64,000 nt of DNA. It comes from Phycisphaerae bacterium (GTDB taxonomy: Bacteria > Planctomycetota > Phycisphaerae > SM23-33). Shown piece by piece: positions 33,805 to 55,346 of this stretch; position 1 is the stretch's first letter, and every line of letters starts with the position of its first letter. The stretch lies in assembly GCA_041946855.1 (NCBI GenBank), contig JBHGBE010000006.1, forward strand, positions 16,999 through 80,998, given 5' to 3'. A program made the position numbers and the translations under genes. Below the pieces are notes generated by a model that searched no databases, was not told the DNA's origin, and worked only from the letters and a program-made list of their open reading frames with translations.

Positions 33805-35664
33805 ATGATCGACGCGCCATTCGTCTCGGCAGTGCTCCTCATGGCGGTCGCGGCAACGCCTACCCCGCCCGCGACTGCCCCCATAAAGGCCCCCGCGACG
33901 ATGCCCACTCGTGCGCCCATGGCGGCGCCCACCAAGTCCCCGACGCCGACTCCCGCAAAGGCATTGACGCCGACACCCGCGAGGACGCCGACACCCACAG
34001 CGGCGCCCACGCCCACGAAGGCGCCAGCGCCCGCGACCGCGTCGGCGCCAGCGACGAAGCTCACGCCGCCGTCAGCCGTCTTCGAGGGCCCGCCCGCCCC
34101 CGTTGCCGGGCAGATCGACCGCATCGTATTCGCCAAGCTCGCGTCGATGAAGATCCAGCCCGTCCTGTGCTCCGACGCGGTGTTCGTACGGCGCGCCTAC
34201 CTGGACATCACGGGGACGTTGCCGACGGCGAAGGAAGCCAGGGACTTCATCCAGGACCCCGACACCAAGGGCAAGCGCCGCGCACTGATCGACCGCCTGC
34301 TGGAGCGGGATGAGTACGCGGACTACTGGGCCATGAAGTGGGGCGACATACTGCGTATCAAGGCCGAGTTTCCCGTCAACCTGTGGCCCAACGCGGCACA
34401 GGCCTATCACCGCTGGGTCCGTTCGTCCATCGCGTCCAACAAGCCCTACGACAAGTTCGTCCGCGAGTTGCTCACCTCCAGCGGGAGCAACTTCCGCGTG
34501 GGCCCCGTCAACTTCTACCGGGCCATCCAGAACAGGACGCCCGACGGTATCACCGCGGCCGTCGCCCTCGCGTTCATGGGCTCGCGAGTGGATTCCTGGC
34601 CCAAGGACCGCCCGGCGGGCACGGCCGTCTTCTTTTCGCAGATAGGCTACAAGGCCACGCGCGAATGGAAGGAAGAAGACGTATTCTGGGACCCGCTCCA
34701 CACCGCCGTGCCGTACGTCAACGCGGCCGAGCAGCCCGCGCCGACGCCGGCCGTCATGCCAGCCACCGCGCCGGCGCTGCTGACGGCGATGTTCCCTGAT
34801 GGCACGACGGTCAAGCTGCCGACCGACCGCGACCCGAGGGAGGTCTTTGCAGACTGGCTCATCACCCCCAGGAATCCCTGGTTCACGCGGGCCATCGTCA
34901 ATCGCGTCTGGGCGTGGCTGATGGGGCGGGGCATCATCCACGAGCCGGATGACATCCGCGAGAACAATCCCCCCAGCAATCCCGAGCTGCTGGCCTATCT
35001 TGAGAAGGAGATGGCCGACGGCGGCTACGACATGAAGCGGCTCTACCGGCTGATCCTGAATTCCAGCACCTACCAGCTATCCTCCATGCCGCACGCGGGC
35101 ACTCCGCAGGCCGCCGCCCAGTTCGCGAGCTATCCGCTTCGCCGCATGGACGCCGAGGTGCTGATCGACGCGATCAACAAGATCACCGGCTCGACCGAAC
35201 TGTACACCAGCCCGATCCCCGAGCCGTTCACGTACATCCCCCAGAGCCAGCCGGCCGTCGCCATCCCCGATGGGAGCATCACCAGTCCCTTCCTGGCACT
35301 ATTCGGGCGGTCGGCGCGGGCCACGGGCATGGAGAACGAGCGGGACAATAAGCCGGTCCCGGCGCAATCACTGTACATGCTCAATTCGCTCCAGATTCAG
35401 CGGAAGCTGGAGACCGGTCCCAGGCTAAAGGCGCTCTTCGAGTCGCCGCGGAAGCCCTCTGACATGATAGAGGAGCTGTACCTCACGGTCCTTTCGCGCT
35501 TCCCGACCGCCGAGGAGGTCCGGATCGCGGAGGCGTACGGCCCGATCATGCAGCCGAACAAGAACGCCAGGCCGCCGACGGCCGTTCCGACCAAGAGACG
35601 AGAGGACTGGGTGGACATCACCTGGTCACTGATAAACAGCACTGAGTTCCTGTACAGGCATTGA
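33805..35664 (+). CDS. DUF1549/DUF1553 (PSCyt2/PSD1) domain protein with Pro/Thr/Ala-rich N-terminal linker
   Basis: DUF1549-like ...DYWAMKWGDILRIK... and DUF1553-like ...WLMGRGIIHEPDDIRENNPPSNPELLAYLE...; -10 element TATAAT at 33710-33715. Confidence 0.8.
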   Translation: MIDAPFVSAVLLMAVAATPTPPATAPIKAPATMPTRAPMAAPTKSPTPTPAKALTPTPARTPTPTAAPTPTKAPAPATASAPATKLTPPSAVFEGPPAPVAGQIDRIVFAKLASMKIQPVLCSDAVFVRRAYLDITGTLPTAKEARDFIQDPDTKGKRRALIDRLLERDEYADYWAMKWGDILRIKAEFPVNLWPNAAQAYHRWVRSSIASNKPYDKFVRELLTSSGSNFRVGPVNFYRAIQNRTPDGITAAVALAFMGSRVDSWPKDRPAGTAVFFSQIGYKATREWKEEDVFWDPLHTAVPYVNAAEQPAPTPAVMPATAPALLTAMFPDGTTVKLPTDRDPREVFADWLITPRNPWFTRAIVNRVWAWLMGRGIIHEPDDIRENNPPSNPELLAYLEKEMADGGYDMKRLYRLILNSSTYQLSSMPHAGTPQAAAQFASYPLRRMDAEVLIDAINKITGSTELYTSPIPEPFTYIPQSQPAVAIPDGSITSPFLALFGRSARATGMENERDNKPVPAQSLYMLNSLQIQRKLETGPRLKALFESPRKPSDMIEELYLTVLSRFPTAEEVRIAEAYGPIMQPNKNARPPTAVPTKRREDWVDITWSLINSTEFLYRH

Positions 35665-37212: not shown

Positions 37213-37278
37213 AGGCGGAATGTAGAAGGCAGAAGGATAGAAGAAGGCAGAAGGCACAATGCAGAATTCAGAAGGCAC
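37213..37278. repeat. GCAGAAG/GGCGGAATG heptamer array immediately upstream of, and running into, the next gene's start
   Basis: AGGCGGAATGTAGAAGGCAGAAGGATAGAAGAAGGCAGAAGGCACAATGCAGAATTCAGAAGGCACAATG. Its imperfect reverse complement (CATTCTGCCTCTTGCATTTTGCC) lies in the signal-peptide coding region at 37326-37350. Confidence 0.5.
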
Positions 37279-37279
37279 A

Positions 37280-39562
37280 ATGACCAGGTCAGTAAAGGAC
37301 ATGCGGTATTCCCGCCGCCCACCCTTTGCCTTATGCATTCTGCCTCTTGCATTTTGCCTTTCTTTCCTGCTTCTTGGCCCCTCGACGGCCGGCGCGCAGG
37401 CCAGGCCCTATATCGGCTTCGTCTATCCGGCCGGCGGCCAGCAGGGGACCACTTTCCAGATAAGAATCGGCGGGCAGAACACCGACGGCGCCAGCGCGGT
37501 GATCGTCTCCGGCACAGGCGTCCACGCCAGGATCACGGAGTACTTCGGCAGACTGGGCAACCAGGAAATGTCGCTGATGCGGGAGCAACTTGGCGAGTTG
37601 CAGAAGGCTGCCAAGGCCGCCGCGGCCAAGTCCGGCACGTCCGGCAAGGCCGCTGCCCCGGGCATGATGGACTCCCCGCCGATGATGGCACAGCCCGGCA
37701 TGATGATGGACACGCCCGGCAAGTCCGGCCCATCCGGCGCGATGGAAGGCGAAGAGGGCAGGATCATGGCCAGGATTGAGAAACGCCTGGCCGAGTACGT
37801 CAACACGCCGGCCAGCGCCGCGATGTCCAGCCTGTCGTTCGTCGAGGTGACGATTGCGCCCGACGCCGCCCCCGGCCGGCGTGAGATCAGGCTGGTGACG
37901 CTCCGCGGAATCTCCAACCCGATGGTCTTCCACGTCGGCCAGGTTCCCGAGACCGCCCGCAAGCCGATGCTCTCGGCCAGCCTCCAGGTCCTTGGCAAGG
38001 AGGAATCCGCTCTCCGCAAGAGGCCGCCGGAGGAGGAGGAAGTCCGCATCGCCCTCCCATGCACCGCCAACGGGCAGATCGCCTCGGGCGAGGTGAACCG
38101 CTACCGCTTCGAGGCCCGCAAGGGGCAGCGGCTGCTGCTGTCCGTCGAGGGCCGCTCGCTGAATCCCTACATCGCCGACGCCGTTCCCGGCTGGTTCCAG
38201 CCGATCCTGTCGGTCTGCGACGCCGACGGCAAGGAAATGGCGTTCTGCGACGACTATCGCTTCAAGCCCGACCCAGTCATCTTCTTCGAGGCGCCCAAGG
38301 ACGGCCAGTACGTGGCCAGCATCATCGACGCCATCTATCGCGGCCGTGAGGACTTCGTCTACCGCCTCACCATCGGCGAGTTGCCGTTCGTGACGGGCAT
38401 CTTCCCTTTAGGCGGCAAGGCGGGGGAACTGCCGAAGATCGAGATGACCGGCTGGAACATCGACAAGGCAGTGCTGACCCAGCCTCCAAAGGACGCCGGG
38501 CCGGGAATCCACTACGTCACCGCGAGCAAGGGCGGCCTCGTCTCCAACCGCCTGCCCTTCGCCGTCGACACGCTGCCCGAAATCTTCGAGAGGGAGCCCA
38601 ACAACAGCGTCTCGGCCGCGCAGAAGGTGACGTTGCCCGTCATCGTCAACGGGCGCATCGACCGCCCGGACGACTGGGACGTGTTCCAGTTCACCGGCCA
38701 GGCCGGGGACACGGTGGTCGCGGAGGTCATCGCCCGCCGGCTGGAGTCGCCGCTGGATTCGGTGCTGGAGCTGACCGACGCGACGGGCAAGGTGCTCGCG
38801 ATGAACGACGACCACGAGGACCCCGAAGCGGGCGTCAACACGCACGACGCCGATTCGTACCTGATGTTCAAGCTGCCGGCCGATGGGACCTATTACATCC
38901 GCCTGGGCGACACCGACCGCAACGGCGGCCCGGAGTACGCCTACCGGCTGCGGATCAGCCAGCCGCGGCCGGATTTCTCGCTGTTCGCCGTGCCGACAAG
39001 CGCCGCCATGGCCGCCAAGGGCAGCGCCTACCTCAAGGTAGTGGCCGTTCGCAAGGACGGCTTCATGGGTCCCATCACGCTGAACTTCAAGGACCTGCCC
39101 GGCGGGTTCACGGCGACGGCAGGCTCGGTCCCCAAGGGCGCGACGGCCGGGAACATGAGCCTGAAGACCACGCTGGCGGCCACGACCCAGCCGGTCAACC
39201 TGACTGTGGAAGGCAAGGCGAAGTTCGGCCAGGTTGACCTCTCGCACGAGGCCCTGCCCGCGGAAGACCGCATGCAGGCATTCCTCTGGCGGCACCTGGT
39301 GCCCGCCGAGGACCTGAAGGTGCTGGTCTACGACCCCGCCTATTCGCCCCCGCCTAAGCGGGTCCCCCCACCCAGGCCGGTCCAGACCAGGCCAGCCTCC
39401 ACGCAAACCAGACCGGCGCCCGCCTCAGGCGCGGCCAAGCCAAGATTCTCCAAGCGCGAGGTCGCCGGACTCATCCGCCAGCTCAAGTGGCTCTACGAGG
39501 AGGGACTGATCACGGATGGCTTCTACGGCCGCAAAATGGCCGAGTGCGAAGCCGCGGAATGA
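37280..39562 (+). CDS. Secreted protein with pre-peptidase C-terminal (PPC)-like beta domains
   Basis: Signal peptide ...MRYSRRPPFALCILPLAFCLSFLLLGPSTAGAQA, so the start is ambiguous between 37259, 37280 and 37301. PPC-like segment REPNNSVSAAQKVTLPVIVNGRIDRPDDWDVFQF. Confidence 0.55.
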   Translation: MTRSVKDMRYSRRPPFALCILPLAFCLSFLLLGPSTAGAQARPYIGFVYPAGGQQGTTFQIRIGGQNTDGASAVIVSGTGVHARITEYFGRLGNQEMSLMREQLGELQKAAKAAAAKSGTSGKAAAPGMMDSPPMMAQPGMMMDTPGKSGPSGAMEGEEGRIMARIEKRLAEYVNTPASAAMSSLSFVEVTIAPDAAPGRREIRLVTLRGISNPMVFHVGQVPETARKPMLSASLQVLGKEESALRKRPPEEEEVRIALPCTANGQIASGEVNRYRFEARKGQRLLLSVEGRSLNPYIADAVPGWFQPILSVCDADGKEMAFCDDYRFKPDPVIFFEAPKDGQYVASIIDAIYRGREDFVYRLTIGELPFVTGIFPLGGKAGELPKIEMTGWNIDKAVLTQPPKDAGPGIHYVTASKGGLVSNRLPFAVDTLPEIFEREPNNSVSAAQKVTLPVIVNGRIDRPDDWDVFQFTGQAGDTVVAEVIARRLESPLDSVLELTDATGKVLAMNDDHEDPEAGVNTHDADSYLMFKLPADGTYYIRLGDTDRNGGPEYAYRLRISQPRPDFSLFAVPTSAAMAAKGSAYLKVVAVRKDGFMGPITLNFKDLPGGFTATAGSVPKGATAGNMSLKTTLAATTQPVNLTVEGKAKFGQVDLSHEALPAEDRMQAFLWRHLVPAEDLKVLVYDPAYSPPPKRVPPPRPVQTRPASTQTRPAPASGAAKPRFSKREVAGLIRQLKWLYEEGLITDGFYGRKMAECEAAE

Positions 39563-39841
39563 GACGCCTGCGCGGTCAGTCCGCCCGATACTTCGACGAG
39601 TTCCTGATTCAGGCGCAGACGCACTCGCCCTCAGAAACCACTTTCGCACTCTTGCACCTGTCCTCCCGGGCCCGAAGTGCCGCCTTGCCCGCGCGGGCGT
39701 CGGCGCAAGACACCGTCCCATCGCAGGCCGCACGGCCGTGAAGCTCCAGCACCCTCGACGCGTCGTGCATGAGGACGATCCGCGTGTTTGCCGCGCAGTA
39801 GCCCCCAGGGCGGCGCGTGCGCGGAATTTCTCCTTTTTCCA

Positions 39842-39868
39842 TTGCTTCGTTGTTTGGCGAAGTATAAT
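39842..39868 (+). promoter_or_regulatory. Sigma70-like promoter TTGCTT-15-TATAAT for the metalloid island
   Basis: Located in an AT-rich patch ~30 nt upstream of the DGC gene ATG (39898), whose Shine-Dalgarno is AGGAGA. Confidence 0.4.
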
Positions 39869-39897
39869 AATAGCGGCAATGGACATAGGAGAAAGCC

Positions 39898-40278
39898 ATG
39901 GCGAATTGCTCATGCGGCCCTGACGCCCGGAAGACGGTCCTGATCTACGCCTGTTCCGGCGGGGCCAACGTCGCCGAGATCGCGGACAAGGCCGCCCGCG
40001 AGCTGATGTTCGGCGGCTGCGGGTCGATGTTCTGCCTGGCCGGACTTGGCGCCGGCATACAGGGCATGATCCAGACGGCCAAGGACGCGGACGTGAATCT
40101 GGTGATCGACGGCTGCCCGATGGACTGCGCGAGGAAAGTCTTCGAGAAGGCCGGCATTGCCAACTACCGCTATGTCAAGGTGACCGACTTGGGCATCGAG
40201 AAGGCAAAGGGCGTCCGGGCCACGGATGAACAGGTCGCCAAGGTCGTGGCCAAGGTCAAGGAAGTTCTGGCCGGGTAG
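39898..40278 (+). CDS. DGC domain zinc-binding protein
   Basis: MANCSCGPD...LVIDGCPMDCARK: Cys pattern and the DGC signature. Confidence 0.65.
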   Translation: MANCSCGPDARKTVLIYACSGGANVAEIADKAARELMFGGCGSMFCLAGLGAGIQGMIQTAKDADVNLVIDGCPMDCARKVFEKAGIANYRYVKVTDLGIEKAKGVRATDEQVAKVVAKVKEVLAG

Positions 40279-40290
40279 AGGCATGGCCCG

Positions 40291-41112
40291 ATGAGCATGG
40301 GCGCATTAGTTGGCACGTTCCCGCGGCGCGGCGAGTTCGACAAGGCCAGGGCATGCCTGGACGCGCTGGGTCTGCCGCATGAGGTGATCTCGCCTGATCC
40401 CGCGTACTCCAGCGTCGGCGTGCCATCGCTCGCGCTGGATCAGGAGGCCCACAAGACGCTCTATGCAAGGTATCCGAACGCCTTCACCTGCTCGGGTTGG
40501 GTGGACTACCGGCCGGTCAAGGCCGCTGTTCCCGCCGAAGCCCCAAAGACCTACCTCGACGATGTGTTCGGCACTGCTGCGATCATGGTCCTGGCCCCAT
40601 GCGTGGCGGACACGGCGAAGATCCGCCTGATCGCCCACATATCGGGCGACCTGACCGAGGTCTTCCCCTACATGAACGCCGTGATGCGCGAGGCATCCTA
40701 CAACAAGGCCGGACCGACGTTCACGTTCATGGACGGCTACAGGATGGTCTCCGTATACCCGCGCCGGATCGCCGTCGCCAAGGCCGATGACATCGTGGAC
40801 GGCTGGCGAGTGCTGGAGGCCCTTCGCCGGAGGGCCAACGAGACCTGGCAGGCGCGAGCCGGTATCGAGCCATCCTACGAGATGCGCGAGAAGCCGCCGG
40901 CTCTGGAGATATTCAGACGCCTGCCCCGGACCAACTGCCGCTCGTGCGGCGAGCAGACCTGCCTGGCGTTCGCGGTCCGCGTCTACATGGGCGAGTTGCC
41001 GGCCGTGAGGTGCAGGCCGGTCTTCGTCGGGGAATTCCGACACCTGAAGGATGCACTGGTGGAGATATGCGCCGGCCTGGGCGTCGAGACTTCCGCGGCT
41101 GTAACAGGATGA
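40291..41112 (+). CDS. Putative Fe-S cluster-binding protein (C-terminal CX2CX4CX16C motif)
   Basis: C-terminal NCRSCGEQTCLAFAVRVYMGELPAVRC matches the 4-Cys Fe-S domain spacing exactly. The N-terminal region has no assignable family. Confidence 0.5.
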   Translation: MSMGALVGTFPRRGEFDKARACLDALGLPHEVISPDPAYSSVGVPSLALDQEAHKTLYARYPNAFTCSGWVDYRPVKAAVPAEAPKTYLDDVFGTAAIMVLAPCVADTAKIRLIAHISGDLTEVFPYMNAVMREASYNKAGPTFTFMDGYRMVSVYPRRIAVAKADDIVDGWRVLEALRRRANETWQARAGIEPSYEMREKPPALEIFRRLPRTNCRSCGEQTCLAFAVRVYMGELPAVRCRPVFVGEFRHLKDALVEICAGLGVETSAAVTG

Positions 41113-41143: not shown

Positions 41144-41377
41144 ATGAAGAAGCTACAGATACTGGGAACGGGCTGCCCCAAGTGCAAGAAGCTGGCCGAG
41201 AACGCCGAGGCGGCGGCAAAGGCGATGGGCATCCAGTACACGATCGAGAAGGTCACGGACATCAACGAGATCATGAAGTTCGGCGTGATGATGACGCCCG
41301 CCCTGGCCGTGGACGGGGTGGTGAAGGTCGTGGGCAGGGTCCCCGACTCCGAGGCGATCAAGGCGATGCTCGGATAG
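41144..41377 (+). CDS. Small thioredoxin-family protein (redox-active disulfide protein 2-like, CPKC)
   Basis: 76 aa MKKLQILGTGCPKCKKLAENAE...; GGAGAAG Shine-Dalgarno upstream. Confidence 0.75.
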   Translation: MKKLQILGTGCPKCKKLAENAEAAAKAMGIQYTIEKVTDINEIMKFGVMMTPALAVDGVVKVVGRVPDSEAIKAMLG

Positions 41378-41394: not shown

Positions 41395-41847
41395 ATGATG
41401 GCCAACAAGGAAAGGATTTCGGAAATGAGAAGATGGCTGCGAGAGCATGGATGCCTGTTCACGCTGTTTGCCCTGGCGGGCCTGTCCGGGCTGCTGGGGA
41501 CAGGTTGCCAGCAGGCCCAGACATCGAACCTGACATACCAGCCCACTGGCACGCCGCGTCTGGTGGAGCTTGGCACGGCCGCCTGCATCCCCTGCGCGTT
41601 GATGCGGCCGGGCCTGGACGAACTGAAGGCGCAGTACGCCGGGCGGCTTGAGGTGGAGGTCATCGACACGCTGTACGACCCCGGCGCGAAGACGCAGTAC
41701 AAGGCCCCCTTCTGCGCAACGCAGATATACATTGCGGCGTCGGGCAAGGAGCTGTACCGCCACGTCGGCTATGCGTCCAAGGAGGAGATACTTGCGAACT
41801 GGCGGCGACTGGGCGTGGACCTGACTGCTCCGCCGCCGCGGCAATAG
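41395..41847 (+). CDS. Thioredoxin-like lipoprotein (CIPC active site)
   Basis: Lipobox LLGTGC, then ...LVELGTAACIPCALMRPGLDELKAQYAGRLEVEVIDT... thioredoxin fold. Confidence 0.65.
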   Translation: MMANKERISEMRRWLREHGCLFTLFALAGLSGLLGTGCQQAQTSNLTYQPTGTPRLVELGTAACIPCALMRPGLDELKAQYAGRLEVEVIDTLYDPGAKTQYKAPFCATQIYIAASGKELYRHVGYASKEEILANWRRLGVDLTAPPPRQ

Positions 41848-41997
41848 CGGGTGCAGGCAGTGTCACAGACGATGCTCAGCCAGTGTCCTTGCAGCGGCGG
41901 CGGCGCGGGCGGGGCCGCCGCGTGGCTCGCCCTGGCCGTGGGCCTGGGCGCGTGGCTGCTCGTCCGATACGTCTGGAACAAGGAAGGTGCTTCAGTC

Positions 41998-43275
41998 ATG
42001 GGCAAGATCGGAAAGATCGCAATTGTCGTCCTGTTGGCTGTTGTGGTTGTCGCCATCGTCGTGATGAAGAACAGCGGCCCTTCGGCGCCGCCCGCGCAGG
42101 CGCCCGTCCAAGCAGCCGGGCTGCCACGCCTGGTCGACCTTGGCTCCACCACATGCATCCCGTGCAAGATGATGGCCCCGGTCCTGGAGGAATTGGCAAG
42201 AGAATACGCCGGCCGGATGCGGGTTGAGTTCATCAATGTCCAGGAGAACCCCGACGCGGCCAAGCCCTACGGCATCAAGCTGATCCCCACCCAGGTGTTC
42301 TACGACGCCTCCGGCGCGGAGATAGACCGCAACGAGGGCTTCATCTCCAAGGAGGACATCCTGGCGAGGTTCGGGGCGAAGGGAATTCTGTTCGCCGCCC
42401 CGCCTCCGGCCGCCTCCCAGCCGGCCGACGCTCCGGCCTTTGAGCGGCTTGAGCCCGCCCAGGCGGATACACGGGCCAAGGACGCCATCTGCTTCATGTG
42501 CGACCGCGATATCTCCCCCAAGACGCTGGTGGTCGTCAGGAGCGACAAGGGCGACGTCCGCCTGTGCGGCCCGCACTGCTTCTTCATCATGTACTCCTGC
42601 CTGACGGAGGACAAGACGGGCCTTGAGAAGAAGGTCTCCGTCACCGATTGGGCGACGGGCAAGCTGGTTGCGGCGACGGAGGCGACCTACCTCTACGGCC
42701 TGGACGCCGGGACAGGCCGTCCGACGATCAGAGCGTTCGCGGAAAAGGACGCCGCCGGCGCGGAGCTGAAGGCGTCGGGCGGCAGCCTGATCGGCTGGCA
42801 AGTGCTGCGGGACAAGGAACTGGAGAACCGTTGCGGGTTCTGCGATCGCGCCTGCTACCCGGCCGATTCGGCGAAGGTCACGGTCGGCGGCCTGAGCACG
42901 CTCGGATGCTGCTCGCACTGCGCGCTAGGCGTGGCCGCCCGTACGGGCAAGGACATCGAGGTCCACGAGCGGGACCGCCTGACCGGCGAAGAGATCGTCG
43001 TGAAGACCGCCGACGGCGGCGTGGCCTCGATCCAGCCGGCCACGGCCGTCGCGTGGTTCGGCCTGCGCAAAGGCGCGGACGGCAAGTTCGCGTCGGCAGG
43101 CTGCTTCCACCAGGGCTTCTTCGTCAACGCGGACAACCTGAGAAAGTGGGTCGAACAGAATCCATTGGAGACCGGCAGGCTTATCACCATACAGCAGGCA
43201 TTGGCCGACAAGATGAAGCTTACCGCCCAGCAGATTCAGAAGGCGTGCAAGATCGGCCAGTGCGCCCCCAAGTAG
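41998..43275 (+). CDS. Membrane-anchored thioredoxin-domain protein fused to two TRASH/YHS-like metal-binding domains
   Basis: TM anchor, Trx fold with CIPC (LVDLGSTTCIPCKMMAPVLEELAREYAGRMRV). Then CFMC-x21-CGPHC and CGFC-x21-CCSHC, each matching C-x2-C-x19-22-C-x3-C. AAGGAAGG Shine-Dalgarno upstream. Confidence 0.65.
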   Translation: MGKIGKIAIVVLLAVVVVAIVVMKNSGPSAPPAQAPVQAAGLPRLVDLGSTTCIPCKMMAPVLEELAREYAGRMRVEFINVQENPDAAKPYGIKLIPTQVFYDASGAEIDRNEGFISKEDILARFGAKGILFAAPPPAASQPADAPAFERLEPAQADTRAKDAICFMCDRDISPKTLVVVRSDKGDVRLCGPHCFFIMYSCLTEDKTGLEKKVSVTDWATGKLVAATEATYLYGLDAGTGRPTIRAFAEKDAAGAELKASGGSLIGWQVLRDKELENRCGFCDRACYPADSAKVTVGGLSTLGCCSHCALGVAARTGKDIEVHERDRLTGEEIVVKTADGGVASIQPATAVAWFGLRKGADGKFASAGCFHQGFFVNADNLRKWVEQNPLETGRLITIQQALADKMKLTAQQIQKACKIGQCAPK

Positions 43276-43314: not shown

Positions 43315-44256
43315 ATGAGAGTATTCAGCATCACGACGGCGTTCCTGGCCCTGGGAGTTCTGTGCGCTCAGGCTGCCGACAAGCCCGCGGCGGCTCCGGC
43401 GCCTGCGGCCGCGTCGCAGCCGGCGTCCGTCAACGACGCCTACCCCGAACTTGCCACAAGCGGCCTGACCTTCTCCCGGCTTGCCGACCTTCCCAAGGGC
43501 ACGCTCCTGAAGGCGGGCGACATGACAATCACGGACAAGCAGATCGCCGACGAGATCGCCAAGGCGCCGAAGGATGTCCAGGACCAGCTCAGGAAGAACG
43601 CCTTCTTCCTCCTGGAGCAGATGGCGACCAAGGCCCTGCTGCTCAAGGAGGCCAAAGCCGATGCGGGCAAGGAACCGGCGGCGGGCGACGACAGCACCCT
43701 CATCCAGGGCTACCTGGGCAAGCTGGCGGACAAGGTGAAGATCAGCGACGGCGAAGTCTCGGAGTTCTACAAGAACAATAAGGACGCCGTGGGCGGCGCC
43801 GAGCTGGACAAGGTCAAGCCCCAGATCGTCCAGTACCTGCGCCAGGAGAAGGCCCAAGTGCTGATCTGGCAGCACGTCAAGGCCCTGGGGCAGCGCACGG
43901 CCATCGAGGTCTCGGCGGCGTGGGCCAAGGAGCAGGCCGTGCTTGCCAAGGACAACCCCGTGGACAAGGCCCGCGCCAGCGGCAGGCCGTCGCTCGTGGA
44001 CTTCGGCTCCAAGGGCTGCAAGCCCTGCGACATGCTCGCCCCGATCCTGGCGACGCTCAAGACAAGGTACGAGGGCAAGGCCAACGTTCTGTTCGTGTCT
44101 GTGGTCGAGGAGCGGATACTGGCCGCGCGCTACGGGATCAGCTCGATTCCCGTCCAGGTCTTCTACGACAAGGACGGTAAGGAAGTATCCCGCCACGTGG
44201 GATTCTACCCGCAGGAGGAAATCGAGAAGGAGATGGCCAAGCTCGGAGTGAAGTAG
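43315..44256 (+). CDS. Periplasmic thioredoxin-like protein (CKPC) with N-terminal chaperone-like domain
   Basis: Signal peptide MRVFSITTAFLALGVLCAQAAD and a C-terminal Trx fold ...LVDFGSKGCKPCDMLAPILATLKTRYEGKANVLFV.... Confidence 0.65.
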   Translation: MRVFSITTAFLALGVLCAQAADKPAAAPAPAAASQPASVNDAYPELATSGLTFSRLADLPKGTLLKAGDMTITDKQIADEIAKAPKDVQDQLRKNAFFLLEQMATKALLLKEAKADAGKEPAAGDDSTLIQGYLGKLADKVKISDGEVSEFYKNNKDAVGGAELDKVKPQIVQYLRQEKAQVLIWQHVKALGQRTAIEVSAAWAKEQAVLAKDNPVDKARASGRPSLVDFGSKGCKPCDMLAPILATLKTRYEGKANVLFVSVVEERILAARYGISSIPVQVFYDKDGKEVSRHVGFYPQEEIEKEMAKLGVK

Positions 44257-44955
44257 ATGGAGCAGCTCTTCACAACCCTGACCCGTGCCGTCGAGGGCGC
44301 GCCGGCGATAGCCCTGGGCGCTTCCTTCATCTGGGGCATACTGAGCATACTTCTCAGTCCGTGCCATCTGTCGAGCATCCCGCTGATTGTCGGGTTCATC
44401 GACCAGCAGGGGCGGGTCTCTCCGCGAAGGGCGTTCGGCATATCCGGCCTGTTCGCCGTTGGGATTCTCATCACGATCGCGGCGATCGGCGCGGTCACGG
44501 CCGCCGCCGGGCGGATGATGGGCGATGTCGGCCGGTACGGCAACTATGTCATCGCGGGGCTCTTCTTCCTCGTCGGCCTGGTCCTGCTGGATGTGATCCC
44601 CATGCCATTTTCCGGCCCCGGCGCGGTGGGCCTGAAGCGCAAGGGGTTTTTGGCCGCCTTCATCCTTGGCCTGGTGTTCGGCGTGGCCCTGGGCCCATGC
44701 ACTTTCGCGTACATGGCGCCGATGCTGGGCGTCACCTTCAAGCTGGCGGCGGCGAATGTGGTGTATGGGGTCGCCCTGCTGGCCGCCTACGGCGTGGGAC
44801 ACTGCTCGGTGATCGTCCTGGCCGGCACATCGACCGGCTGGGTGCAGAAGTACCTGAACTGGAATGAGAAGTCCAGGGGCGCGGTCATCCTCAAGAAGGT
44901 CTGCGGCCTGCTGGTGCTGGCCGGCGGGGTGTACCTGATATACGTGGCCGGATGA
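44257..44955 (+). CDS. ccdA: Cytochrome c-type biogenesis protein CcdA / DsbD-like transmembrane electron transporter
   Basis: Polytopic membrane protein with two conserved Cys (...LLSPCHLSSIPL... and ...ALGPCTFAYMAPML...). Its start abuts the preceding stop. Confidence 0.8.
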   Translation: MEQLFTTLTRAVEGAPAIALGASFIWGILSILLSPCHLSSIPLIVGFIDQQGRVSPRRAFGISGLFAVGILITIAAIGAVTAAAGRMMGDVGRYGNYVIAGLFFLVGLVLLDVIPMPFSGPGAVGLKRKGFLAAFILGLVFGVALGPCTFAYMAPMLGVTFKLAAANVVYGVALLAAYGVGHCSVIVLAGTSTGWVQKYLNWNEKSRGAVILKKVCGLLVLAGGVYLIYVAG

Positions 44956-44982: not shown

Positions 44983-46533
44983 ATGATCAGTTGGAAGACG
45001 GAATGGAAGAAGCTGCTGGCCATCGTGGTTGTGTTCCTGGCCTTCCTCTGGCTTCCGCTGGGCTGGAGCCGTTTTGACAACGCGGTCACGGAGGCACTGG
45101 CCCTGGCCAAGTGGTACGCCCAGGAGCACGTTCTGCTGTGCCTGGTGCCTGCCTTCTTCATCGCCGGCGCTATCGGCGTGTTCGTCAGCCAGGCTTCCGT
45201 GATGAAGTACCTTGGGGCCAGGGCCAACAAGGTGATGGCCTACGGCGTGGCGGGCGTATCAGGCACGATCCTGGCCGTCTGCTCCTGCACCGTCCTTCCG
45301 CTGTTCACGGGCATCTATCGCATGGGGGCCGGATTGGGCCCCGCCATCGCGTTCCTCTACTCCGGGCCGGCCATCAGCGTCCTGGCCATTGTGCTCACCG
45401 CCCGGATTCTCGGCCCGGAGCTGGGCATCGCCCGCGCCGTCGGGGCCGTCAGCTTCAGCGTCATCATCGGCCTGGCCATGCACTTCATCTACCGCAAGGA
45501 GGAGATCCAGAAGGCCAACGGGCAGATGGCCATGCCGGAACCGGAGGTCAAGCGCCCGCTGTGGCAGAACGCGGCATTCTTCGCCGCCCTGGTGGGCATC
45601 CTCGTCTTCGCCAACTGGGCCAGGCCCGCTGAAGTTCGCGTAACGGTCATCGACCACCACGGCGACTCGACCACCTACGGGGGGATCATCGAGCGACAGG
45701 ACGAAGGCTCGATCCAGCTACGAGGCTACGTGCAGGCAAGCGCCGGCTTGTCGGCGGCGGCAGTATTCGAGATCCCGCGGGCCGGCGCCGCGGTCGAACC
45801 GGCGGGGGGGGCTTGGTGGGCCCTATTCCACGCCAAGTGGTTCATCACCGGCGCTCTGGCGGCTGCATTAGGGCTTATTCTGGTCTTCTGGTTCGGCCTG
45901 AGATGGTGGAAGGTCGCCGCGGCCGGCCTGCCGGCGGCGGTCCTTGCGGTCATCCTGCCCACTGACGGCCTTATGGTGATGGTCCCCTTCGCCGCGGCGG
46001 TCCTGGGGCTGTCGGCAATCACCAGCACCGACAAGGGCGAGGCAGGCGAGTGGTTCGCCTCCACGTGGGCCTTCGCCAAACAGATAATGCCTTTGCTGCT
46101 CGTGGGTGTGCTGGTCGCGGGGTTCCTGCTGGGGCGGGTTGGCAAGGAAGGCATTATCCCCAGCCAATACGTGCGGATGCTCGTCGGCGACAAGCCGGAC
46201 ACGTTCCTGTCCATGACCGCCCTGGCCGGCGGCTCGTCGGAGGCGTTCATCCGGACGATCTGGCCGGTCTGGACGAACTTCTTCGCCTCGGTCTTCGGGG
46301 CGTTCATGTACTTCGCCACGTTGACCGAGGTGCCGATCGTCCAGGGCCTGATCGGCTCGGGCATGGGCAAGGGGCCGGTCCTGGCGCTGCTGCTGTCGGG
46401 CCCGAGCCTGTCGCTGCCGAGCATGCTGGTGATCGCCAGCGTGCTGGGCGCCAGGAAGACGGCGGTCTATGTGACGCTGGTGATCGTCCTGTCCACGGCG
46501 GCCGGGATGATCTTCGGCGCGGTCTGGGGTTAG
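44983..46533 (+). CDS. ArsP-like permease (DUF318/PF03773) with ~120-aa internal insertion
   Basis: Conserved ...AVCSCTVLPLF... Cys motif in the N-terminal repeat and ...GGSSEAFIRTIWPVW... C-terminal repeat. An extra TM-containing insert separates the two halves. Confidence 0.65.
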   Translation: MISWKTEWKKLLAIVVVFLAFLWLPLGWSRFDNAVTEALALAKWYAQEHVLLCLVPAFFIAGAIGVFVSQASVMKYLGARANKVMAYGVAGVSGTILAVCSCTVLPLFTGIYRMGAGLGPAIAFLYSGPAISVLAIVLTARILGPELGIARAVGAVSFSVIIGLAMHFIYRKEEIQKANGQMAMPEPEVKRPLWQNAAFFAALVGILVFANWARPAEVRVTVIDHHGDSTTYGGIIERQDEGSIQLRGYVQASAGLSAAAVFEIPRAGAAVEPAGGAWWALFHAKWFITGALAAALGLILVFWFGLRWWKVAAAGLPAAVLAVILPTDGLMVMVPFAAAVLGLSAITSTDKGEAGEWFASTWAFAKQIMPLLLVGVLVAGFLLGRVGKEGIIPSQYVRMLVGDKPDTFLSMTALAGGSSEAFIRTIWPVWTNFFASVFGAFMYFATLTEVPIVQGLIGSGMGKGPVLALLLSGPSLSLPSMLVIASVLGARKTAVYVTLVIVLSTAAGMIFGAVWG

Positions 46534-46638: not shown

Positions 46639-47805
46639 ATGGCACAGGGCAACGTTCGTCGCATCTTCAGGTTAGCTTGGAAGCTGGCGCTGATAGCGGC
46701 CATCGCCGGCGCAGTTGTGTACTACGTTCGCTTTCGCCCCGTGCCGGTAAAGGCATTCGTCGTCAAGGCGGACACCGTGCAATCGGAGGTCATGGGCACC
46801 GGCGTGCTGGACGCCCGCACGAAGATCACGATCAGCTCCAAGATCACCGGCCGGATCGCGTCACTGGGCGCTGACCAGAACGATCCGGTGTCCAAGGACA
46901 TGCTCCTGGCGACGCTGGACGACAGCGATCTGCGCCAGCAAGTGGAGATGGCCACCGCAAGCCTGGAGGCCACCAAGGCGTCCCTTGTACGAGTCGAAGC
47001 CGACATCGCCCGCGCTCAAGCCGTCCTGACCCAGGCACGGTTGGACCATGACCGTTCATCGGAACTGCTCCAGAAGCATGTCGCCTCAAAGGATGAGGTG
47101 GACAAGGCCAAGGAGGCGCTCGATGTTGCCCAGGCGGGGCTCGACAGCAGCAAGGCCGCCAAGGTTGAAGCGGAGCACCAGGTGGTGACGGCCGAGCGGA
47201 CGCTCAAGTATCAGCAGGCGTGCCTGGCGTACACCAGGATCCTCTGTCCGGTGGACGATGGCTTGGTGACTTTCCGCTACCGCGAGGTCGGGGACATCGT
47301 GGTTCCGGGCACCGCCATCATGGACGTGGTGTGCCTAAAGGAAATGTGGGTATCGGCCTGGGTGGATGAATCCGCGTCGGGCGCTCTGGCCGTCGGCCAG
47401 CCTGTCCGCGTGGTCTTCCGTTCGGAGCCCCAGAAGTCATATTCCGGCCAGGTCGCCCGTCTGGCAAAACAGACCGACCGCGAGACACGCGAGTTCCTGG
47501 TGGATGTCAGCGTGAAGGAATTGCCCAGGAACTGGTCGGTCGGCCAGAGGGCCGAGGTCTATATACAGACTGCCTCGAAGGCTGACGCCCTGGCCATCCC
47601 GCAGCAGGTGCTCCTCTGGCGCGACGGAAAGCCCGGCGTGTTCGTCGATGACGGCGGCAAGGCATTGTATCAGGAAGTCGGCCTGGGCCTCAAGGGGCGG
47701 GAGAGTGTCGAAGTCCTGCGCGGGTTGAACATCGGCCAGGCGGTCGTGACCGCCGCCGACGGGGACAACAGCAAGCTGACGGATGGGCGGGCGATCCAGC
47801 GATGA
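46639..47805 (+). CDS. Efflux transporter periplasmic adaptor subunit (HlyD/MacA family)
   Basis: TM anchor, coiled-coil hairpin and beta-barrel/lipoyl motifs; its stop overlaps the next start. Confidence 0.8.
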   Translation: MAQGNVRRIFRLAWKLALIAAIAGAVVYYVRFRPVPVKAFVVKADTVQSEVMGTGVLDARTKITISSKITGRIASLGADQNDPVSKDMLLATLDDSDLRQQVEMATASLEATKASLVRVEADIARAQAVLTQARLDHDRSSELLQKHVASKDEVDKAKEALDVAQAGLDSSKAAKVEAEHQVVTAERTLKYQQACLAYTRILCPVDDGLVTFRYREVGDIVVPGTAIMDVVCLKEMWVSAWVDESASGALAVGQPVRVVFRSEPQKSYSGQVARLAKQTDRETREFLVDVSVKELPRNWSVGQRAEVYIQTASKADALAIPQQVLLWRDGKPGVFVDDGGKALYQEVGLGLKGRESVEVLRGLNIGQAVVTAADGDNSKLTDGRAIQR

Positions 47806-49013
47806 ACCTGGCCCTCAAGGACATCAAGCACAATTTCGGGCGCTTCGCGCTGACGGCCATCGGCATCGGCCTGCTGCTCATGCTGGTCATGGGCATGGGC
47901 GGCATCTATCGCGGCCTTGTGGACGACGCCACGCTGCTGGTCAACCGCATCGGGGCAGACCTTTGGGTGGTGCAGAAGGAAACTCGCGGCCCGTTCACCG
48001 AGCTGTCCCGCATCCCCGCCAATATGGAAGACCGCGTGAGGGCAGTGCCCGGGGTGTTATTATCCAACGACTTTGTCTCCTACACCATCCAGCGCGAGCA
48101 AGGAGGCCGGACATTGCGGATGACGGTCCAAGGGCTTTCCTGGCCGCAGGACAAGGGAGCGTGGCTTCCTCTGGTCGCCGGGCGCGGACTGGCACAGGCC
48201 CACTACGAGATGATCGCGGATAGGTCGCTGGGCCTGCCCCTCGGAACTCGCATGGTGTTGGGGAAGGACACCTACACGGTCGTGGGTATCACGCGCAACA
48301 TGGCGTCCACCGCCGGCGACTCGATGATCTTCGTCACGTTGGCCGATTCCCAGGCCATCCAATACGACCAGTCCGGGGAGGCCGTGCGCCTGGAGCGGGA
48401 GGCACGGAAGGTCCGTGCCTCTGATTTTGATCCGGGCAGGATCGAACCGGGGATTCTGGACCGAGCGGCCGGGCCATCTTCGGGAATCCCCGCTCTGGGG
48501 CCGCCCCCCGTCAGCGCGGTGGTGGTGAAGGTAGCGCCGGGGGCAAACGCGGCCCAGGTGGCGGCCGCGATCGCCTCCTGGCCCGATGTCTCCGTCTACA
48601 CCGCCGACGCCCAGAAGCAGCTCCTGGTCAGCGGCATGGTGGACAAGTCCAGGCGGCAACTGGCCCTGTTCCGGGGGCTGCTCATCATCGTTTCGGCCAT
48701 CATCATGGCCCTGATCCTCTACACGCTCACCCTGGACAAGATACACGACATCGCGGTGCTCAAGCTCATGGGCGCCCGAAACCTTGTCGTCGTCAACCTG
48801 ATCCTCCAGCAGGCGCTGCTGCTGGGGACCATCGGCTACGGGATCGCCTACGGCATCGGCCAGTGGGTCTTCCCGGTCTTTCCTCGGCGCGTGCTGATCC
48901 TGGATGAGGACCTGTGGCTGCTGGCGGGGATCGTGCTGGGTATCTCCGTGCTGGCCAGCATGCTTGGCATCTGGCGGGCCATGAAGGTCCGGCCCAACGA
49001 GGTGATCGCCTGA
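47802..49013 (+). CDS. ABC transporter permease, FtsX/MacB-like
   Basis: MNLALKDIKHNFGRFALTAIGIGLL..., a large periplasmic domain and a C-terminal 3-TM FtsX fold. ATGA overlaps on both sides. Confidence 0.8.
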   Translation: MNLALKDIKHNFGRFALTAIGIGLLLMLVMGMGGIYRGLVDDATLLVNRIGADLWVVQKETRGPFTELSRIPANMEDRVRAVPGVLLSNDFVSYTIQREQGGRTLRMTVQGLSWPQDKGAWLPLVAGRGLAQAHYEMIADRSLGLPLGTRMVLGKDTYTVVGITRNMASTAGDSMIFVTLADSQAIQYDQSGEAVRLEREARKVRASDFDPGRIEPGILDRAAGPSSGIPALGPPPVSAVVVKVAPGANAAQVAAAIASWPDVSVYTADAQKQLLVSGMVDKSRRQLALFRGLLIIVSAIIMALILYTLTLDKIHDIAVLKLMGARNLVVVNLILQQALLLGTIGYGIAYGIGQWVFPVFPRRVLILDEDLWLLAGIVLGISVLASMLGIWRAMKVRPNEVIA

Positions 49014-49723
49014 TGGTCGAAACAGCCAATTGTCTGGCCGTCGAGGCGTCGGGCCTGACGAAGGTCTACGGCAGCGGGAACACAGAGGTGCAGGCCCTGC
49101 GCGGAGTGGATCTGTGCCTGGCGCGAGGAGAGGTCATCGCCCTGCTGGGTCCCAGCGGCGCGGGCAAGAGCACGCTCCTGACCGTCATCGGCCTGGTCAG
49201 CGAACCGACCGCCGGCCGGATCGCCATGGAAGGCAAGCCGGTGGTCACCGATGGCCGGTTCGTCGTCGACGTGCGGACATTCCGCCGGAGGCACATGGGC
49301 TTCGTGTTCCAGAAGGCCAACCTCATTCCGTTCCTTACGGCCGCCGAGAACGTCCGCGTGGCGATGGAGATCAACGACCAGTCGCCACGGGCGGCACGGC
49401 GCAGGGCGATGGAATTGCTGGAGTACCTGGGCGTGGCGGACCGCGCCGACCATTACCCCAACACGCTCTCCGGCGGGCAGCAGCAGCGAGTGGCCGTGGC
49501 GCGGGCGCTGGCCAACCAGCCCGGCCTTATCCTGGCCGACGAGCCGACGGCCGCCCTGGACAGCGTGCGCGGCCGGCAGGTCATGGAGCTGTTTCGCAAG
49601 GTTGCCCACGAGCGGCAGTCGGCGGTCCTGGTGGTCACGCACGATCACAGGGCCCTGGACGTGTTCGACCGGACGCTGGAGATGGAGGACGGGCTGATTC
49701 ACGGAAAGGCGGCCACAGTTTAG
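49013..49723 (+). CDS. ABC transporter ATP-binding protein (MacB/LolD-like)
   Basis: Walker [10 protein letters not shown], signature [15 protein letters not shown], Walker [12 protein letters not shown]. Confidence 0.85.
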
Positions 49724-49754: not shown

Positions 49755-50153
49755 ATGAAAGCCAAGGCGGAGATTGATGCCGGAGTTTGCGGGTTCAAGA
49801 CCATCGCCGTTGCCACCTGCGACGACGAGCAGCACGTGAGGATCGACATTTACAGCGGGTGCGAGAAGGTCCGCGCCATGGCCGCTTCGTTGAAGGACAA
49901 TGGAGCGGTTGACGCGTACCAGGAGATCGGCCCGGCTGGGCGGAGCGTCGTGCTGAGCGCGGCCAAAGAGGCGCTCAAAGGCTGCTGCGCCGCGTGCGCG
50001 GCCCCGGTGGGCGTGTTCAAGGCGATGCAGGTCGCGGCCGGTTTGGCGCTTCCCAAGGACATCAGCATCGGACTCAGCAAAGTCGCGGACGAGTCCGGCG
50101 CGGACGCCTCCCGCGCCTGTTCCGGGGGCGTGCCCGAAGCCGGGAGGCAATGA
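49755..50153 (+). CDS. Small Cys-rich hypothetical protein
   Basis: 132 aa with 11 Cys (GVCGFK, VATCDDE, SGCEK, KGCCAACAAP, RACSGG). Its stop overlaps the arsR start. Confidence 0.45.
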   Translation: MKAKAEIDAGVCGFKTIAVATCDDEQHVRIDIYSGCEKVRAMAASLKDNGAVDAYQEIGPAGRSVVLSAAKEALKGCCAACAAPVGVFKAMQVAAGLALPKDISIGLSKVADESGADASRACSGGVPEAGRQ

Positions 50154-50512
50154 TGCGCGAAGTGATGGCGATAACGAAGGCCCTGGCCGATGAGAGCCGA
50201 TCGCGGATCGTGATGTTTCTCCGCGGCGGCGAGATGTGCGTCTGCCAGATCGTCGAGATGCTGCGCCTGGCCCCCTCCACTGTCTCCAAGCACCTGGACA
50301 TCCTATACCGGTCCGGGCTTGTCGAATCGCGCAAGCAGGGCCTTTGGGTCTACTACGGCCTGAGCGGCAAGCCCACGCCTTGCGTGAAGAAGGCGCTCGC
50401 GTGGCTCACGTCGTGCCTGGCGGACGACCCGCGGACGGCCGAGGATGACCGCCGTAGGAAGGCCGTCATGAAGATCGACAAGGAGAAGCTCTGCTGCCGG
50501 TATCGAGGCTGA
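50150..50512 (+). CDS. arsR: ArsR/SmtB family transcriptional regulator (As(III)-responsive type)
   Basis: ...GEMCVCQIVEMLRLAPSTVSKHLDILYRSGLV...: wHTH with the CVC metalloid-binding site. GGGAGG Shine-Dalgarno. Confidence 0.8.
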   Translation: MMREVMAITKALADESRSRIVMFLRGGEMCVCQIVEMLRLAPSTVSKHLDILYRSGLVESRKQGLWVYYGLSGKPTPCVKKALAWLTSCLADDPRTAEDDRRRKAVMKIDKEKLCCRYRG

Positions 50513-50526
50513 TTGCGAGGAATTGG

Positions 50527-50982
50527 ATGTCCGGCAAACTGAAGATTCTGTTCCTCTGCACCGGCAACTCCTGCCGAAGCCAGATGGCCGAGGGCTGGGC
50601 CCGCGCCTTGAAGGGCGACGTGATCGAGCCATCCTCGGCCGGAATCGAGGCATTCGGCCTCCATCCCCTGGCCGTCAAAGTGATGGCGGAGGCGGGAGTG
50701 GACATCTCGCGCCAGCGATCCAAGAACGTCGCGGAACTGGCCGAGGTCCCTTTCGATTACGTCGTCACCGTCTGCGGCCACGCGAACGAGTCGTGCCCCG
50801 CGTGGCTCGGACGGAAGGCCCGCGTCGTCCACGTCGGCTTCGACGACCCGCCGACGCTGGCGATGCACGCCAAATCCGAGGAAGAGGCCCTCGGCCACTA
50901 TCGCCGCGTGCGCGATGAGATCAAGGCGTTCATCCTCACGCTGCCGGGTGCGTTGAAACCCAACAAGGAGCGCAAGCTATGA
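50527..50982 (+). CDS. arsC: Arsenate reductase, LMW-PTP family (thioredoxin-coupled)
   Basis: P-loop [13 protein letters not shown] and downstream Cys pair [10 protein letters not shown]. Confidence 0.85.
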
Positions 50983-52115: not shown

Positions 52116-52140
52116 ACCAGCAAGTTGAAGGAGCCACGAA

Positions 52141-54959: not shown

Positions 54960-54997
54960 CTGCTCGGCCGTGGCGAAGGGGCGCTTGGCCGGCAGGT

Positions 54998-55122
54998 CGG
55001 ATTGTGGATGGCGGATTGCGGATTGCGGATTGATCGCCTGGACGGCCGGCGGAGCTTTCGCGGCGGGCTTGCCCGGCTTGGCCGGAGGCGATTTCGGATT
55101 TCGGATTTCGGATTTCGGATTG
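54998..55122. repeat. Two tandem CGGATT(G/T) heptamer arrays (x5 and x4.5) in the top6B / GT2 divergent region
   Basis: TCGGATTGTGGATGGCGGATTGCGGATTGCGGATTGA (54998-55034) and CGATTTCGGATTTCGGATTTCGGATTTCGGATTG (55089-55122). The unit is identical to the feoB-internal element. Confidence 0.6.
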
Positions 55123-55346
55123 CCCGCCGCAAGCGCTTTGGCGGCCCTCTTGTCGGCCCTTGGTCCCTCGTCGCTAGTCCCTAGTCGCTTACTTGGCTTC
55201 TTGGCCATCCGTGGCGTCCCTGATGTTGAAGGTCTGCACATCAACTTCCAGCGTAATCTATGCGGTTTGCACCCGGCCGTCAAGCGATGGCAATTGCGGT
55301 CCGCCTGGAGGTTTTCACGCCCGCCGGTGCGCGGTATCATGTGCTA

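Follow-up and report, generated by a model that had tools for sequence, protein, structure and literature searches.

Organomercurial lyase (MerB; Pfam PF03243) and the copper chaperone NosL (PF05573) share a fold that Kaur and Subramanian derived from duplicated TRASH-like treble clefs and filed in the TRASH family, and the active site of MerB has been argued to reuse an ancestral zinc site (PMC4999995 and its supplements). In MerB, the residues Cys96, Asp99 and Cys159 (R831 numbering) serve as the screen for accepting a sequence as a member (PMC12484752). In holo-NosL of Shewanella denitrificans, Zn(II) is bound by C59-x2-C62...C88-x3-D92 and Cu(I) by C62, M64 and M145, Met64 and Met145 being strictly conserved copper ligands and the Cys-rich site mainly structural (PMC8457098). 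A parallel case is the SAO system of Haft et al., whose MerB-like SaoL, ArsP-family SaoE and small thioredoxin-like SaoT are proposed to act in organometallic chemistry (bioRxiv 10.1101/2022.07.06.499078). Genes for CcdA, thioredoxins and small thioredoxins have been noted in ars operons since 2010, without explanation (PMC2963123). Here we describe a gene at 41872-43275 of a 64-kb stretch (64,000 nucleotides of contig JBHGBE010000006.1, hereafter the window) from a metagenome-assembled genome of a member of the Phycisphaerae (Planctomycetota), whose product is composed of a thioredoxin domain, a NosL-like domain and a MerB-like domain, the last two of which keep the ancestral TRASH-type Cys4 site. 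GenBank names the product 'organomercurial lyase' (MFB3890935.1; 474 amino acids (aa), start GTG 41851); it is not a canonical MerB, and this name is probably an over-annotation.

On the basis of sequence and gene context we tentatively propose, with a confidence somewhat short of even, that this is an extracytoplasmic, membrane-tethered protein that would bind and hand off a soft metal or metalloid, probably As(III), and would be kept reduced by a Trx3-CcdA-Trx relay. The protein is new within the NosL/MerB (TRASH-derived) superfamily, being exported, fused to thioredoxin, furnished with Cys in place of the catalytic Asp and encoded in arsenic islands; the literature searched yielded no account of such a fusion, nor of any MerB-like protein encoded in ars islands. 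The gene and its parts are as follows, in window positions, with residues numbered throughout from ATG 41998 (the 425-aa form) unless said otherwise.

41872..43275, + strand: target gene in its probable full form, an open reading frame (ORF) of 467 aa plus stop, identical to database protein P0001 (467 aa)
41872..41997, + strand: N-terminal extension of 42 in-frame codons, comprising MLSQ-C-P-C-SGGG (CPC at 41884-41892), a hydrophobic helix (~41914-41970) and a basic loop
42010..42066, + strand: transmembrane signal-anchor, residues 5-23, recognised from its hydrophobic sequence
42118..42363, + strand: thioredoxin domain, residues 41-122, with active site C53-I-P-C56 at 42154-42165
42463..42801, + strand: NosL-like domain (domain 1), residues 156-268, with Cys4 module 1 (C165, C168, C190, C194) and H193 at 42490-42579
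42832..43227, + strand: MerB-like domain (domain 2), residues 279-410, with Cys4 module 2 (C279, C282, C304, C308; 42832-42921), C305, C369 (43102-43104), H307 and H371
43246..43263, + strand: C-terminal tail pair C417-x4-C422 (ACKIGQCAPK), invariant in 54/54 orthologues

An earlier note, made from the letters of the sequence alone, had described the product as a membrane-anchored thioredoxin (CIPC) followed by two TRASH-type Cys4 domains. The anchor at residues 5-23 and the thioredoxin assignment were both borne out, the latter at E = 9e-14 against Pfam Thioredoxin and E = 4e-17 against thioredoxins in the PDB, and the two C-x2-C-x21-C-x3-C modules are exact (C165-x2-C168-x21-C190-x3-C194 and C279-x2-C282-x21-C304-x3-C308). 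Such spacing is rarely reached by chance: among 200,000 shuffles of the 16-Cys protein, one or more copies of the TRASH pattern C-x2-C-x19-22-C-x3-C turned up in 0.22% and two or more in 0.0015% (1.5e-5). Conservation of these cysteines in orthologues, which the note had left to be checked, was assessed in 54 sequences of 53-78% identity, in all of which C279, C282, C304, C305, C308, C369, C417 and C422 are invariant. Module 2 is thus intact in 54/54, and the residues of module 1 are retained in 47-54 of 54 (C165 54/54, C168 51/54, C190 50/54, C194 47/54, with His in 5), next to an H193 kept in 54/54; C286 is not conserved (24/54). The tail that carries C417 and C422 appears flexible, because the confidence of the AlphaFold2 (AF2) model, as the predicted local distance difference test (pLDDT), is below 50 over the last 12 residues.

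The TRASH label itself was close rather than exact. Neither Pfam TRASH (PF08394) nor YHS (PF04945), the models that the note had named, matches the isolated modules (47-residue modules and single domains) at E ≤ 10 or any of 47 family members at E ≤ 0.01, with the limit that HMMER filters may hide very weak matches. The exact C-x2-C-x21-C-x3-C spacing of both modules is that of TRASH/YHS domains (Ettema et al. 2003; Pfam clan CL0175), but here the motifs are embedded in duplicated domains of 115-130 residues, and each module appears to be the first treble clef of a NosL/MerB-like domain of that size (~115-130 residues) rather than a free-standing TRASH domain of 40 residues. The knuckle, hairpin and helix elements are visible in the structure models, and when the profiles of the two domains are compared, their C-x2-C and C-x3-C columns align (E = 0.006), which fits two copies of one domain type. 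Both modules share the ligand pattern of holo-NosL, with Cys for its Asp, and so the motif is genuine and has a known metal site as its homologue. What stands of the label is that the published TRASH family covers NosL and MerB: the NosL/MerB fold derives from TRASH-like treble clefs (PMC4999995), and the equivalent positions in NosL bind Zn(II) (PMC8457098). As an account of the domains, the note was right about the thioredoxin and the Cys4 motifs, but it missed the MerB homology, the C305/C369 pair, the C-x4-C tail, and the CcdA and small-thioredoxin partners described below.

For domain 1, the best match in a fold search was the copper chaperone NosL, which was reached by fold only; a domain-1 profile run against PDB sequences did not find NosL and returned only insignificant LIM-like matches. 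The Pfam NosL model falls just below its gathering cut-off of 24 bits (20.2 bits for the whole protein, 23.8 bits for the isolated domain), and 22 of the 47 family members match it at E ≤ 0.01. By motif and fold, C165, C168, C190 and C194 correspond to the Zn(II) ligands C59, C62, C88 and D92 of the S. denitrificans protein, with Cys for Asp as the fourth ligand. Like NosL (PDB 7OG7, 2HQ3), the target is predicted to be exported and membrane-attached, and it has the C-x2-C...C-x3-(D/C) Zn(II) ligand pattern; unlike NosL, it carries the domain in tandem with a MerB-like domain and a thioredoxin, outside any nos gene context. A NosL-like function would be that of a Cu(I) chaperone for the assembly of an exported copper enzyme, and this would agree with the fold match, with the copper binding of a MerB D99S mutant reported in the SAO preprint (bioRxiv 10.1101/2022.07.06.499078) and with the permease encoded nearby, whose nearest curated family is a Cu/Zn efflux family. 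We consider copper delivery very unlikely, however, because the position of the copper ligand Met64 (second Cys +2) is Arg or Gly in both modules, because the neighbours are ars genes, and because the cluster at 39.9-53 kb contains neither nos genes nor genes for other cuproenzymes, and the genes at 33.8-57.2 kb include no nosZ-, nosD-, nosF- or nosY-type families.

Domain 2 is homologous in both sequence and fold to MerB (R831b, PDB 3F0P/3F2G; Bacillus MerB2, PDB 5C17). Pfam MerB matches residues 293-402 at 64 bits against a cut-off of 27 and matches 47/47 family members; the NCBIfam naming models stay below their cut-offs (MerB NF033555, 29.6 against 200; PRK13239, 25.7 against 193; SaoL NF040728, 14.9 against 140). 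C305 falls at MerB Cys96, C308 at Asp99 and C369 at Cys159, with GCCSHCALG opposite (Y)AMCAIDALG, both when the target is aligned to MerB2 by phmmer and in a MAFFT alignment that includes R831b MerB and 11 MerB representatives. An hhalign comparison of the family with the single R831b MerB sequence (with the numbering checked at C96, D99, C117 and C159) supports C369 as Cys159 but aligned the C-terminal half alone, at a weak E = 0.006; the C96 and D99 assignments rest on the MerB2 phmmer and MAFFT alignments because this match is weak and partial. The Hg-binding cysteines of MerB, Cys96 and Cys159, are accordingly conserved in the target as C305 and C369. Position 99, which is Asp in typical MerBs and Ser in MerB2, is Cys in 54/54 orthologues here. 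The upstream C-x2-C knuckle (C279, C282) and C304, which MerB has lost, are retained, and therefore one domain combines the complete Cys4 site of the ancestor with the cysteine pair of MerB. In this respect the family has the look of a living intermediate on the way from TRASH zinc fingers to MerB. Nothing in the MAFFT alignment corresponds to the N-terminal helical region of MerB, and the MerB-like domain of the target is fused to a thioredoxin and a NosL-like domain.

Taken at its word, the GenBank name describes a true carbon-metal bond lyase acting outside the cytoplasm, in which Cys305 and Cys369 would bind the metal, Cys308, His307 or His371 would donate a proton in place of Asp99, and the thioredoxin domain would recycle or release the thiolate-bound product. 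The Pfam scores well above cut-off in every member, the invariance of both MerB metal-binding cysteines, the natural tolerance of Ser at position 99 in MerB2 and the parallel with the SaoL/SaoE/SaoT trio, itself proposed for organometallic chemistry (bioRxiv 10.1101/2022.07.06.499078), are all consistent with such an enzyme. We regard it as improbable nevertheless, because Asp99, one of the three residues that define MerB (PMC12484752), is Cys in all orthologues, because the NCBIfam MerB scores are far below cut-off and the N-terminal helical region is lacking, and because MerB is a cytoplasmic protein partnered with MerA, whereas the target is exported and surrounded by ars, CcdA and thioredoxin genes rather than by a mer operon; a crude pattern scan of the window found nothing credible for MerA redox, HMA, MerT or HgcA motifs. 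The key acid residue is missing and the genes lie in arsenic-resistance islands of anaerobes, so the protein more likely handles a metal or metalloid through its thiols. A related idea, which we rate as very doubtful, is that the MerB-like domain, given its all-thiolate site (Cys for Asp99) and the reductase built into the protein, is an oxygen-independent lyase or detoxifier of trivalent organoarsenicals or organoantimonials. Its likely substrate would be methylarsenite exported by an ArsP-family permease or released from neighbouring cells, and if true it would form an anaerobe counterpart to the O2-dependent ArsI and ArsH of aerobes.

The likeness to SAO extends to the locus, since both combine a MerB-like protein with an ArsP-family transporter and a small thioredoxin-like protein, and the permease in the window weakly matches SaoE. 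In contrast to the target, SaoL is cytosolic, ~210 aa long, unfused and a selenoprotein with a CU motif, and SAO is found in Firmicutes and others whereas the target belongs to Planctomycetota-Verrucomicrobiota-type lineages.

The earlier note had read the gene as ATG 41998 to 43275. The end and the frame, which give the 425-aa product, are unchanged, but the true start probably lies upstream at ATG 41872; between that codon and the GTG 41851 of the GenBank entry the gene start is ambiguous. Of 52 orthologous loci, 12 keep the N-terminal extension as an in-frame stretch free of stop codons (the window and 11 others), as does L001; from L002 and L003 it is absent, with stop codons present. An AF2 model of the long form contains helices at 13-35 and 42-67, and by the positive-inside rule the extension would yield a hairpin of two transmembrane segments with the CPC motif and the body of the protein both on the outer side. 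Single-anchor orthologues (L013, L015, L028, L052) have a CC pair right behind the anchor in place of the extension. A membrane-proximal cysteine pair therefore recurs in two arrangements, and the basic loop, read with the same rule, suggests that both would place the pair at the outer membrane face. Orthologue N-termini carry a transmembrane anchor, a cleavable signal peptide or a lipobox (L036, L050, L053), signals from which the protein is taken to be exported and membrane-tethered.

The target lies within a same-strand gene cluster that leads into an arsenic-resistance island. Its neighbours are listed below in window order; neighbour counts refer to 53 orthologous loci, with each denominator being the subset given for that neighbour.

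39898..40278, + strand: Cys-rich DGC-domain protein, first gene of the same-strand cluster (Pfam DGC PF08859, E = 4e-30); nearby in 29/46 loci
40291-41112, + strand: Fe-S-domain protein, 273 aa, with a C-terminal 'putative Fe-S cluster' domain (PF04060) only; the first 200 residues match nothing
41144..41377, + strand: small thioredoxin (Trx_3), 77 aa, CPKC, no export signal (Pfam Thioredoxin_3, E = 1e-27; TIGR00412, the MTH895/ArsE family, 108 bits against a cut-off of 62)
41395..41847, + strand: exported thioredoxin-fold protein, probable lipoprotein, CIPC (weak Pfam Thioredoxin match; sequence and start codon)
43315..44256, + strand: exported protein with an N-terminal SurA/peptidyl-prolyl isomerase (PPIase)-like region and a C-terminal thioredoxin, CKPC (Thioredoxin, E = 5e-12)
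44257..44955, + strand: CcdA/DsbD-type thiol-disulfide electron transporter, LSPCH and LGPCT (DsbD_TM, 40.8 bits against a cut-off of 27.1)
44983..46533, + strand: ArsP_1-family permease with C-S-C in a membrane helix (Pfam PF03773, E = 5e-60)
46639-47805, + strand: HlyD-type adaptor
47802-49013, + strand: MacB-type permease
49013-49723, + strand: ATP-binding cassette (ABC) ATPase
49755-50153, + strand: Cys-rich DUF6951 protein, 132 aa, with a GCCAACAAP stretch (Pfam DUF6951, E = 2e-26)
~50144-50512, + strand: arsR (Pfam/NCBIfam)
50527-50982, + strand: LMWP-type arsC (Pfam/NCBIfam)
50979-52115, + strand: acr3 (440.8 bits against a cut-off of 282.8)
52141-52992, + strand: arsM (287.3 bits against a cut-off of 263)

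The most constant partners of the target are those of a thiol relay: Trx_3 lies upstream in 44/47 loci and CcdA downstream in 35/44, at 71-80% identity in nearly all. In the TlpA-ScoI/CoxB and CcdA-ResA/CcmG relays, the cysteines with which a chaperone or apoprotein ligates its metal are kept reduced by an exported thioredoxin that is anchored in the membrane. The target resembles these in its exported and anchored thioredoxin, its C-(V/I)-P-C site, its adjacent CcdA-type transporter and a cysteine-rich metal site as the likely client; it differs in fusing reductase and client, in the dedicated small cytoplasmic thioredoxin encoded alongside, and in its apparent ArsR control and arsenic-island setting. 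Reducing equivalents would thus pass from the cytoplasmic Trx_3 through CcdA to the tethered CIPC domain, in the direction that we infer, and this domain, outside the cytoplasm, would maintain in reduced form the eight cysteines that are invariant in the MerB-like domain and the tail.

The same relay could serve a different end. In that case the Cys-rich domains would be zinc-stabilised recognition modules rather than cargo carriers, and the target would be a dedicated exported disulfide reductase or isomerase that, together with the SurA-like and lipoprotein thioredoxins, repairs or protects exported thiol proteins (for example apocytochromes c) under arsenite or metal stress, much as Scs or TlpA systems do. 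Three exported thioredoxin-fold proteins and a CcdA in one operon, one of them fused to a chaperone-like SurA region, fit this idea, and a structural zinc site would agree both with the replacement of C194 by His in 5 orthologues and with the mainly structural Cys-rich site of NosL (PMC8457098). It leaves unexplained, however, the invariance of the MerB-type pair C305/C369 and of the flexible tail pair, NosL and MerB both hold metal at this site, and the SurA-like thioredoxin sits between the target and ccdA in just 16/47 loci; we therefore see a general reductase or isomerase as unlikely, if worth keeping in view. The fusion of a SurA/PPIase-like region to a thioredoxin is unusual in itself; against Rotamase_2 it scores 21.4 bits (E = 4.5e-4), below the 27-bit cut-off.

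Returning to the proposed metal or metalloid carrier, the ars island that the earlier note had recognised is present, with arsR, arsC, acr3 and arsM at ~50144-52992. At least one of arsC, acr3 and arsM occurs in 27/53 loci, and in 9/15 of those with at least 8 kb on both sides. A homologue of the permease lies upstream of the target in 25/41 loci and an ArsR in 20/40, the ArsR adjoining the module in L001 and L002 having a C-V-C motif. No shared ArsR operator was recognised between the region upstream of the cluster (39563-39900) and that upstream of arsR, which have one GC-rich 11-mer in common and no convincing palindrome; co-regulation in the window therefore rests only on gene order and on arsR adjacency in other loci. 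The HlyD/MacB/ABC efflux set adjoins the module in the window and in ~6-9 of 53 loci (L038, L039, L046-L048, L027), a MacB/ABC pair lies 3' of a thioredoxin-less distant homologue in L086 (3126-5040), and the set may be the exit route for whatever the target binds.

In the mechanism that we favour, the Cys4 positions would hold structural Zn, as in NosL, with occupancy assumed from that homology. C305, C308 and C369 would form an all-thiolate site at the MerB Cys96/Asp99/Cys159 positions, adjoined by the flexible Cys-x4-Cys tail, and these three, perhaps with a bridging Cys, H307 and H371, would bind a soft metal or metalloid. The ars gene context points to As(III), a trivalent organoarsenical or Sb(III) as the most likely cargo. 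The tail and the membrane-proximal Cys pairs could shuttle the bound species, which would be sequestered or passed to an exporter such as the ArsP-family permease or a MacB-type pump, presumably protecting exported thiol proteins. The module would be expressed within an ArsR-controlled arsenic response, and the target would act as a thiol metallochaperone in the manner of NosL or ArsD, with a reductase of the TlpA kind built in. ArsD is the cytoplasmic As(III) metallochaperone of ars operons, where it serves the ArsA ATPase. Its likeness to the target is one of functional analogy only: it has a vicinal Cys pair and a third nearby Cys, as in S3 As(III) sites (C304-C305-x2-C308 in the target), but no sequence or fold relationship was detected.

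As the earlier note had said, the protein is unlike the ArsD and ArsC types. Of the 'As(III)/metal chaperone-reductase' that it proposed, the chaperone part, acting on a metal or metalloid through thiols, remains the best reading, but nothing supports a reductase that acts on arsenic; the thioredoxin domain more plausibly keeps the target's own thiols reduced. A role as arsenate reductase was considered and rejected: the models matched by the thioredoxin-fused domains are those of NosL and MerB only, not of an arsenate reductase family, and the island has a separate arsC of the LMWP type.

We caution that several observations weigh against an arsenic carrier. About half of the loci, many of them short contigs, lack canonical ars genes, and ArsR/SmtB regulators sense many metals. 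The permease is not a verified ArsP, and its best NCBIfam matches, to the SO_0444 Cu/Zn efflux family and to SaoE, both score below cut-off. In a few orthologues, domain 1 has a degenerate Cys4 site. Finally, the retention of both MerB nucleophile cysteines, together with the strong MerB homology, leaves room for a catalytic lyase role.

Other features of the region were noted alongside. An AT-rich, promoter-like stretch (TTGCTT...TATAAT) lies at ~39840-39880, directly upstream of the DGC gene. The PF04060 domain of the Fe-S-domain protein is of the kind found in the gamma subunit of the corrinoid/Fe-S protein, and homologues of this protein occur in only 2/53 loci; in L002 (13772-15333) an MtrA-like (corrinoid-type) protein and an ArsM-like methyltransferase come after the same module, an arrangement that hints at corrinoid-linked methyl chemistry near the module. 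The DUF6951 gene stands between the ABC ATPase and arsR, within the arsenic island, and its 3' end overlaps the likely arsR start at ~50144. Upstream of the cluster are a PSCyt2/PSD1 (DUF1549/DUF1553) protein (33805-35664, + strand), with a domain pair typical of Planctomycetota and so in keeping with the Phycisphaerae assignment, and a large secreted protein with a pre-peptidase C-terminal domain (37259-39562, + strand). At 53277-55340 (- strand), this bacterial genome encodes a Topo VI B-like protein, a 687-aa ORF in which a GHKL ATPase domain is combined with a topoisomerase VI B transducer domain (E = 1e-53).

Relatives of the target are numerous. A word-index search returned many, all in metagenomic assemblies and labelled 'organomercurial lyase', 'thioredoxin 1' or unnamed, and a scan of species-representative genomes gave at least 588 related stretches, from which 80 loci were kept, ~50 of them with a full-length protein. 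Carriers of the full-length protein among these are Planctomycetota (Pirellulales, Sedimentisphaerales, Phycisphaerae, Anaerohalosphaeraceae, Tepidisphaeraceae, Brocadiaceae), Verrucomicrobiota, Lentisphaerota/Victivallales, Hydrogenedentota, Armatimonadota and Aegiribacteria, lineages that are mostly anaerobic. The NosL-plus-MerB-like part by itself is scarce, with only 133 matches at E ≤ 1e-3 among 1.84 billion cluster representatives. Some of these are shorter two-domain proteins without thioredoxin, at 24-32% identity, that have C-x2-C...C-C-P-H-C in both domains and keep the Cys159 equivalent; the tail pair is missing from them. Exported proteins of this kind are sparse (P0134, P0136, P0151, P0158, P0162, P0172, P0176, P0188). 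The two-domain proteins may be the ancestral form of the fusion. The neighbours of two thioredoxin-less homologues (P0158, P0260) are mostly hypothetical proteins and transposases and thus uninformative, the MacB/ABC pair in L086 being the exception.

These results bear first on annotation: hundreds of such proteins from Planctomycetota, Verrucomicrobiota, Lentisphaerota, Hydrogenedentota and others have been deposited as 'organomercurial lyase' or 'thioredoxin 1' and fail the Asp99 criterion, and merB surveys by domain matches alone would overestimate the methylmercury-degrading potential of anoxic sediments. They also give the CcdA/thioredoxin/small-thioredoxin relay of ars operons (PMC2963123) an obvious client, here fused in cis, which suggests a testable function in thiol-based defence against arsenic or soft metals outside the cytoplasm. 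For the family as a whole, the presence of an ancestral TRASH-type Cys4 site and the MerB cysteine pair in one protein is direct sequence support for a route from zinc finger through NosL to MerB, and makes the target a natural scaffold in which to study a structural metal site turning catalytic.

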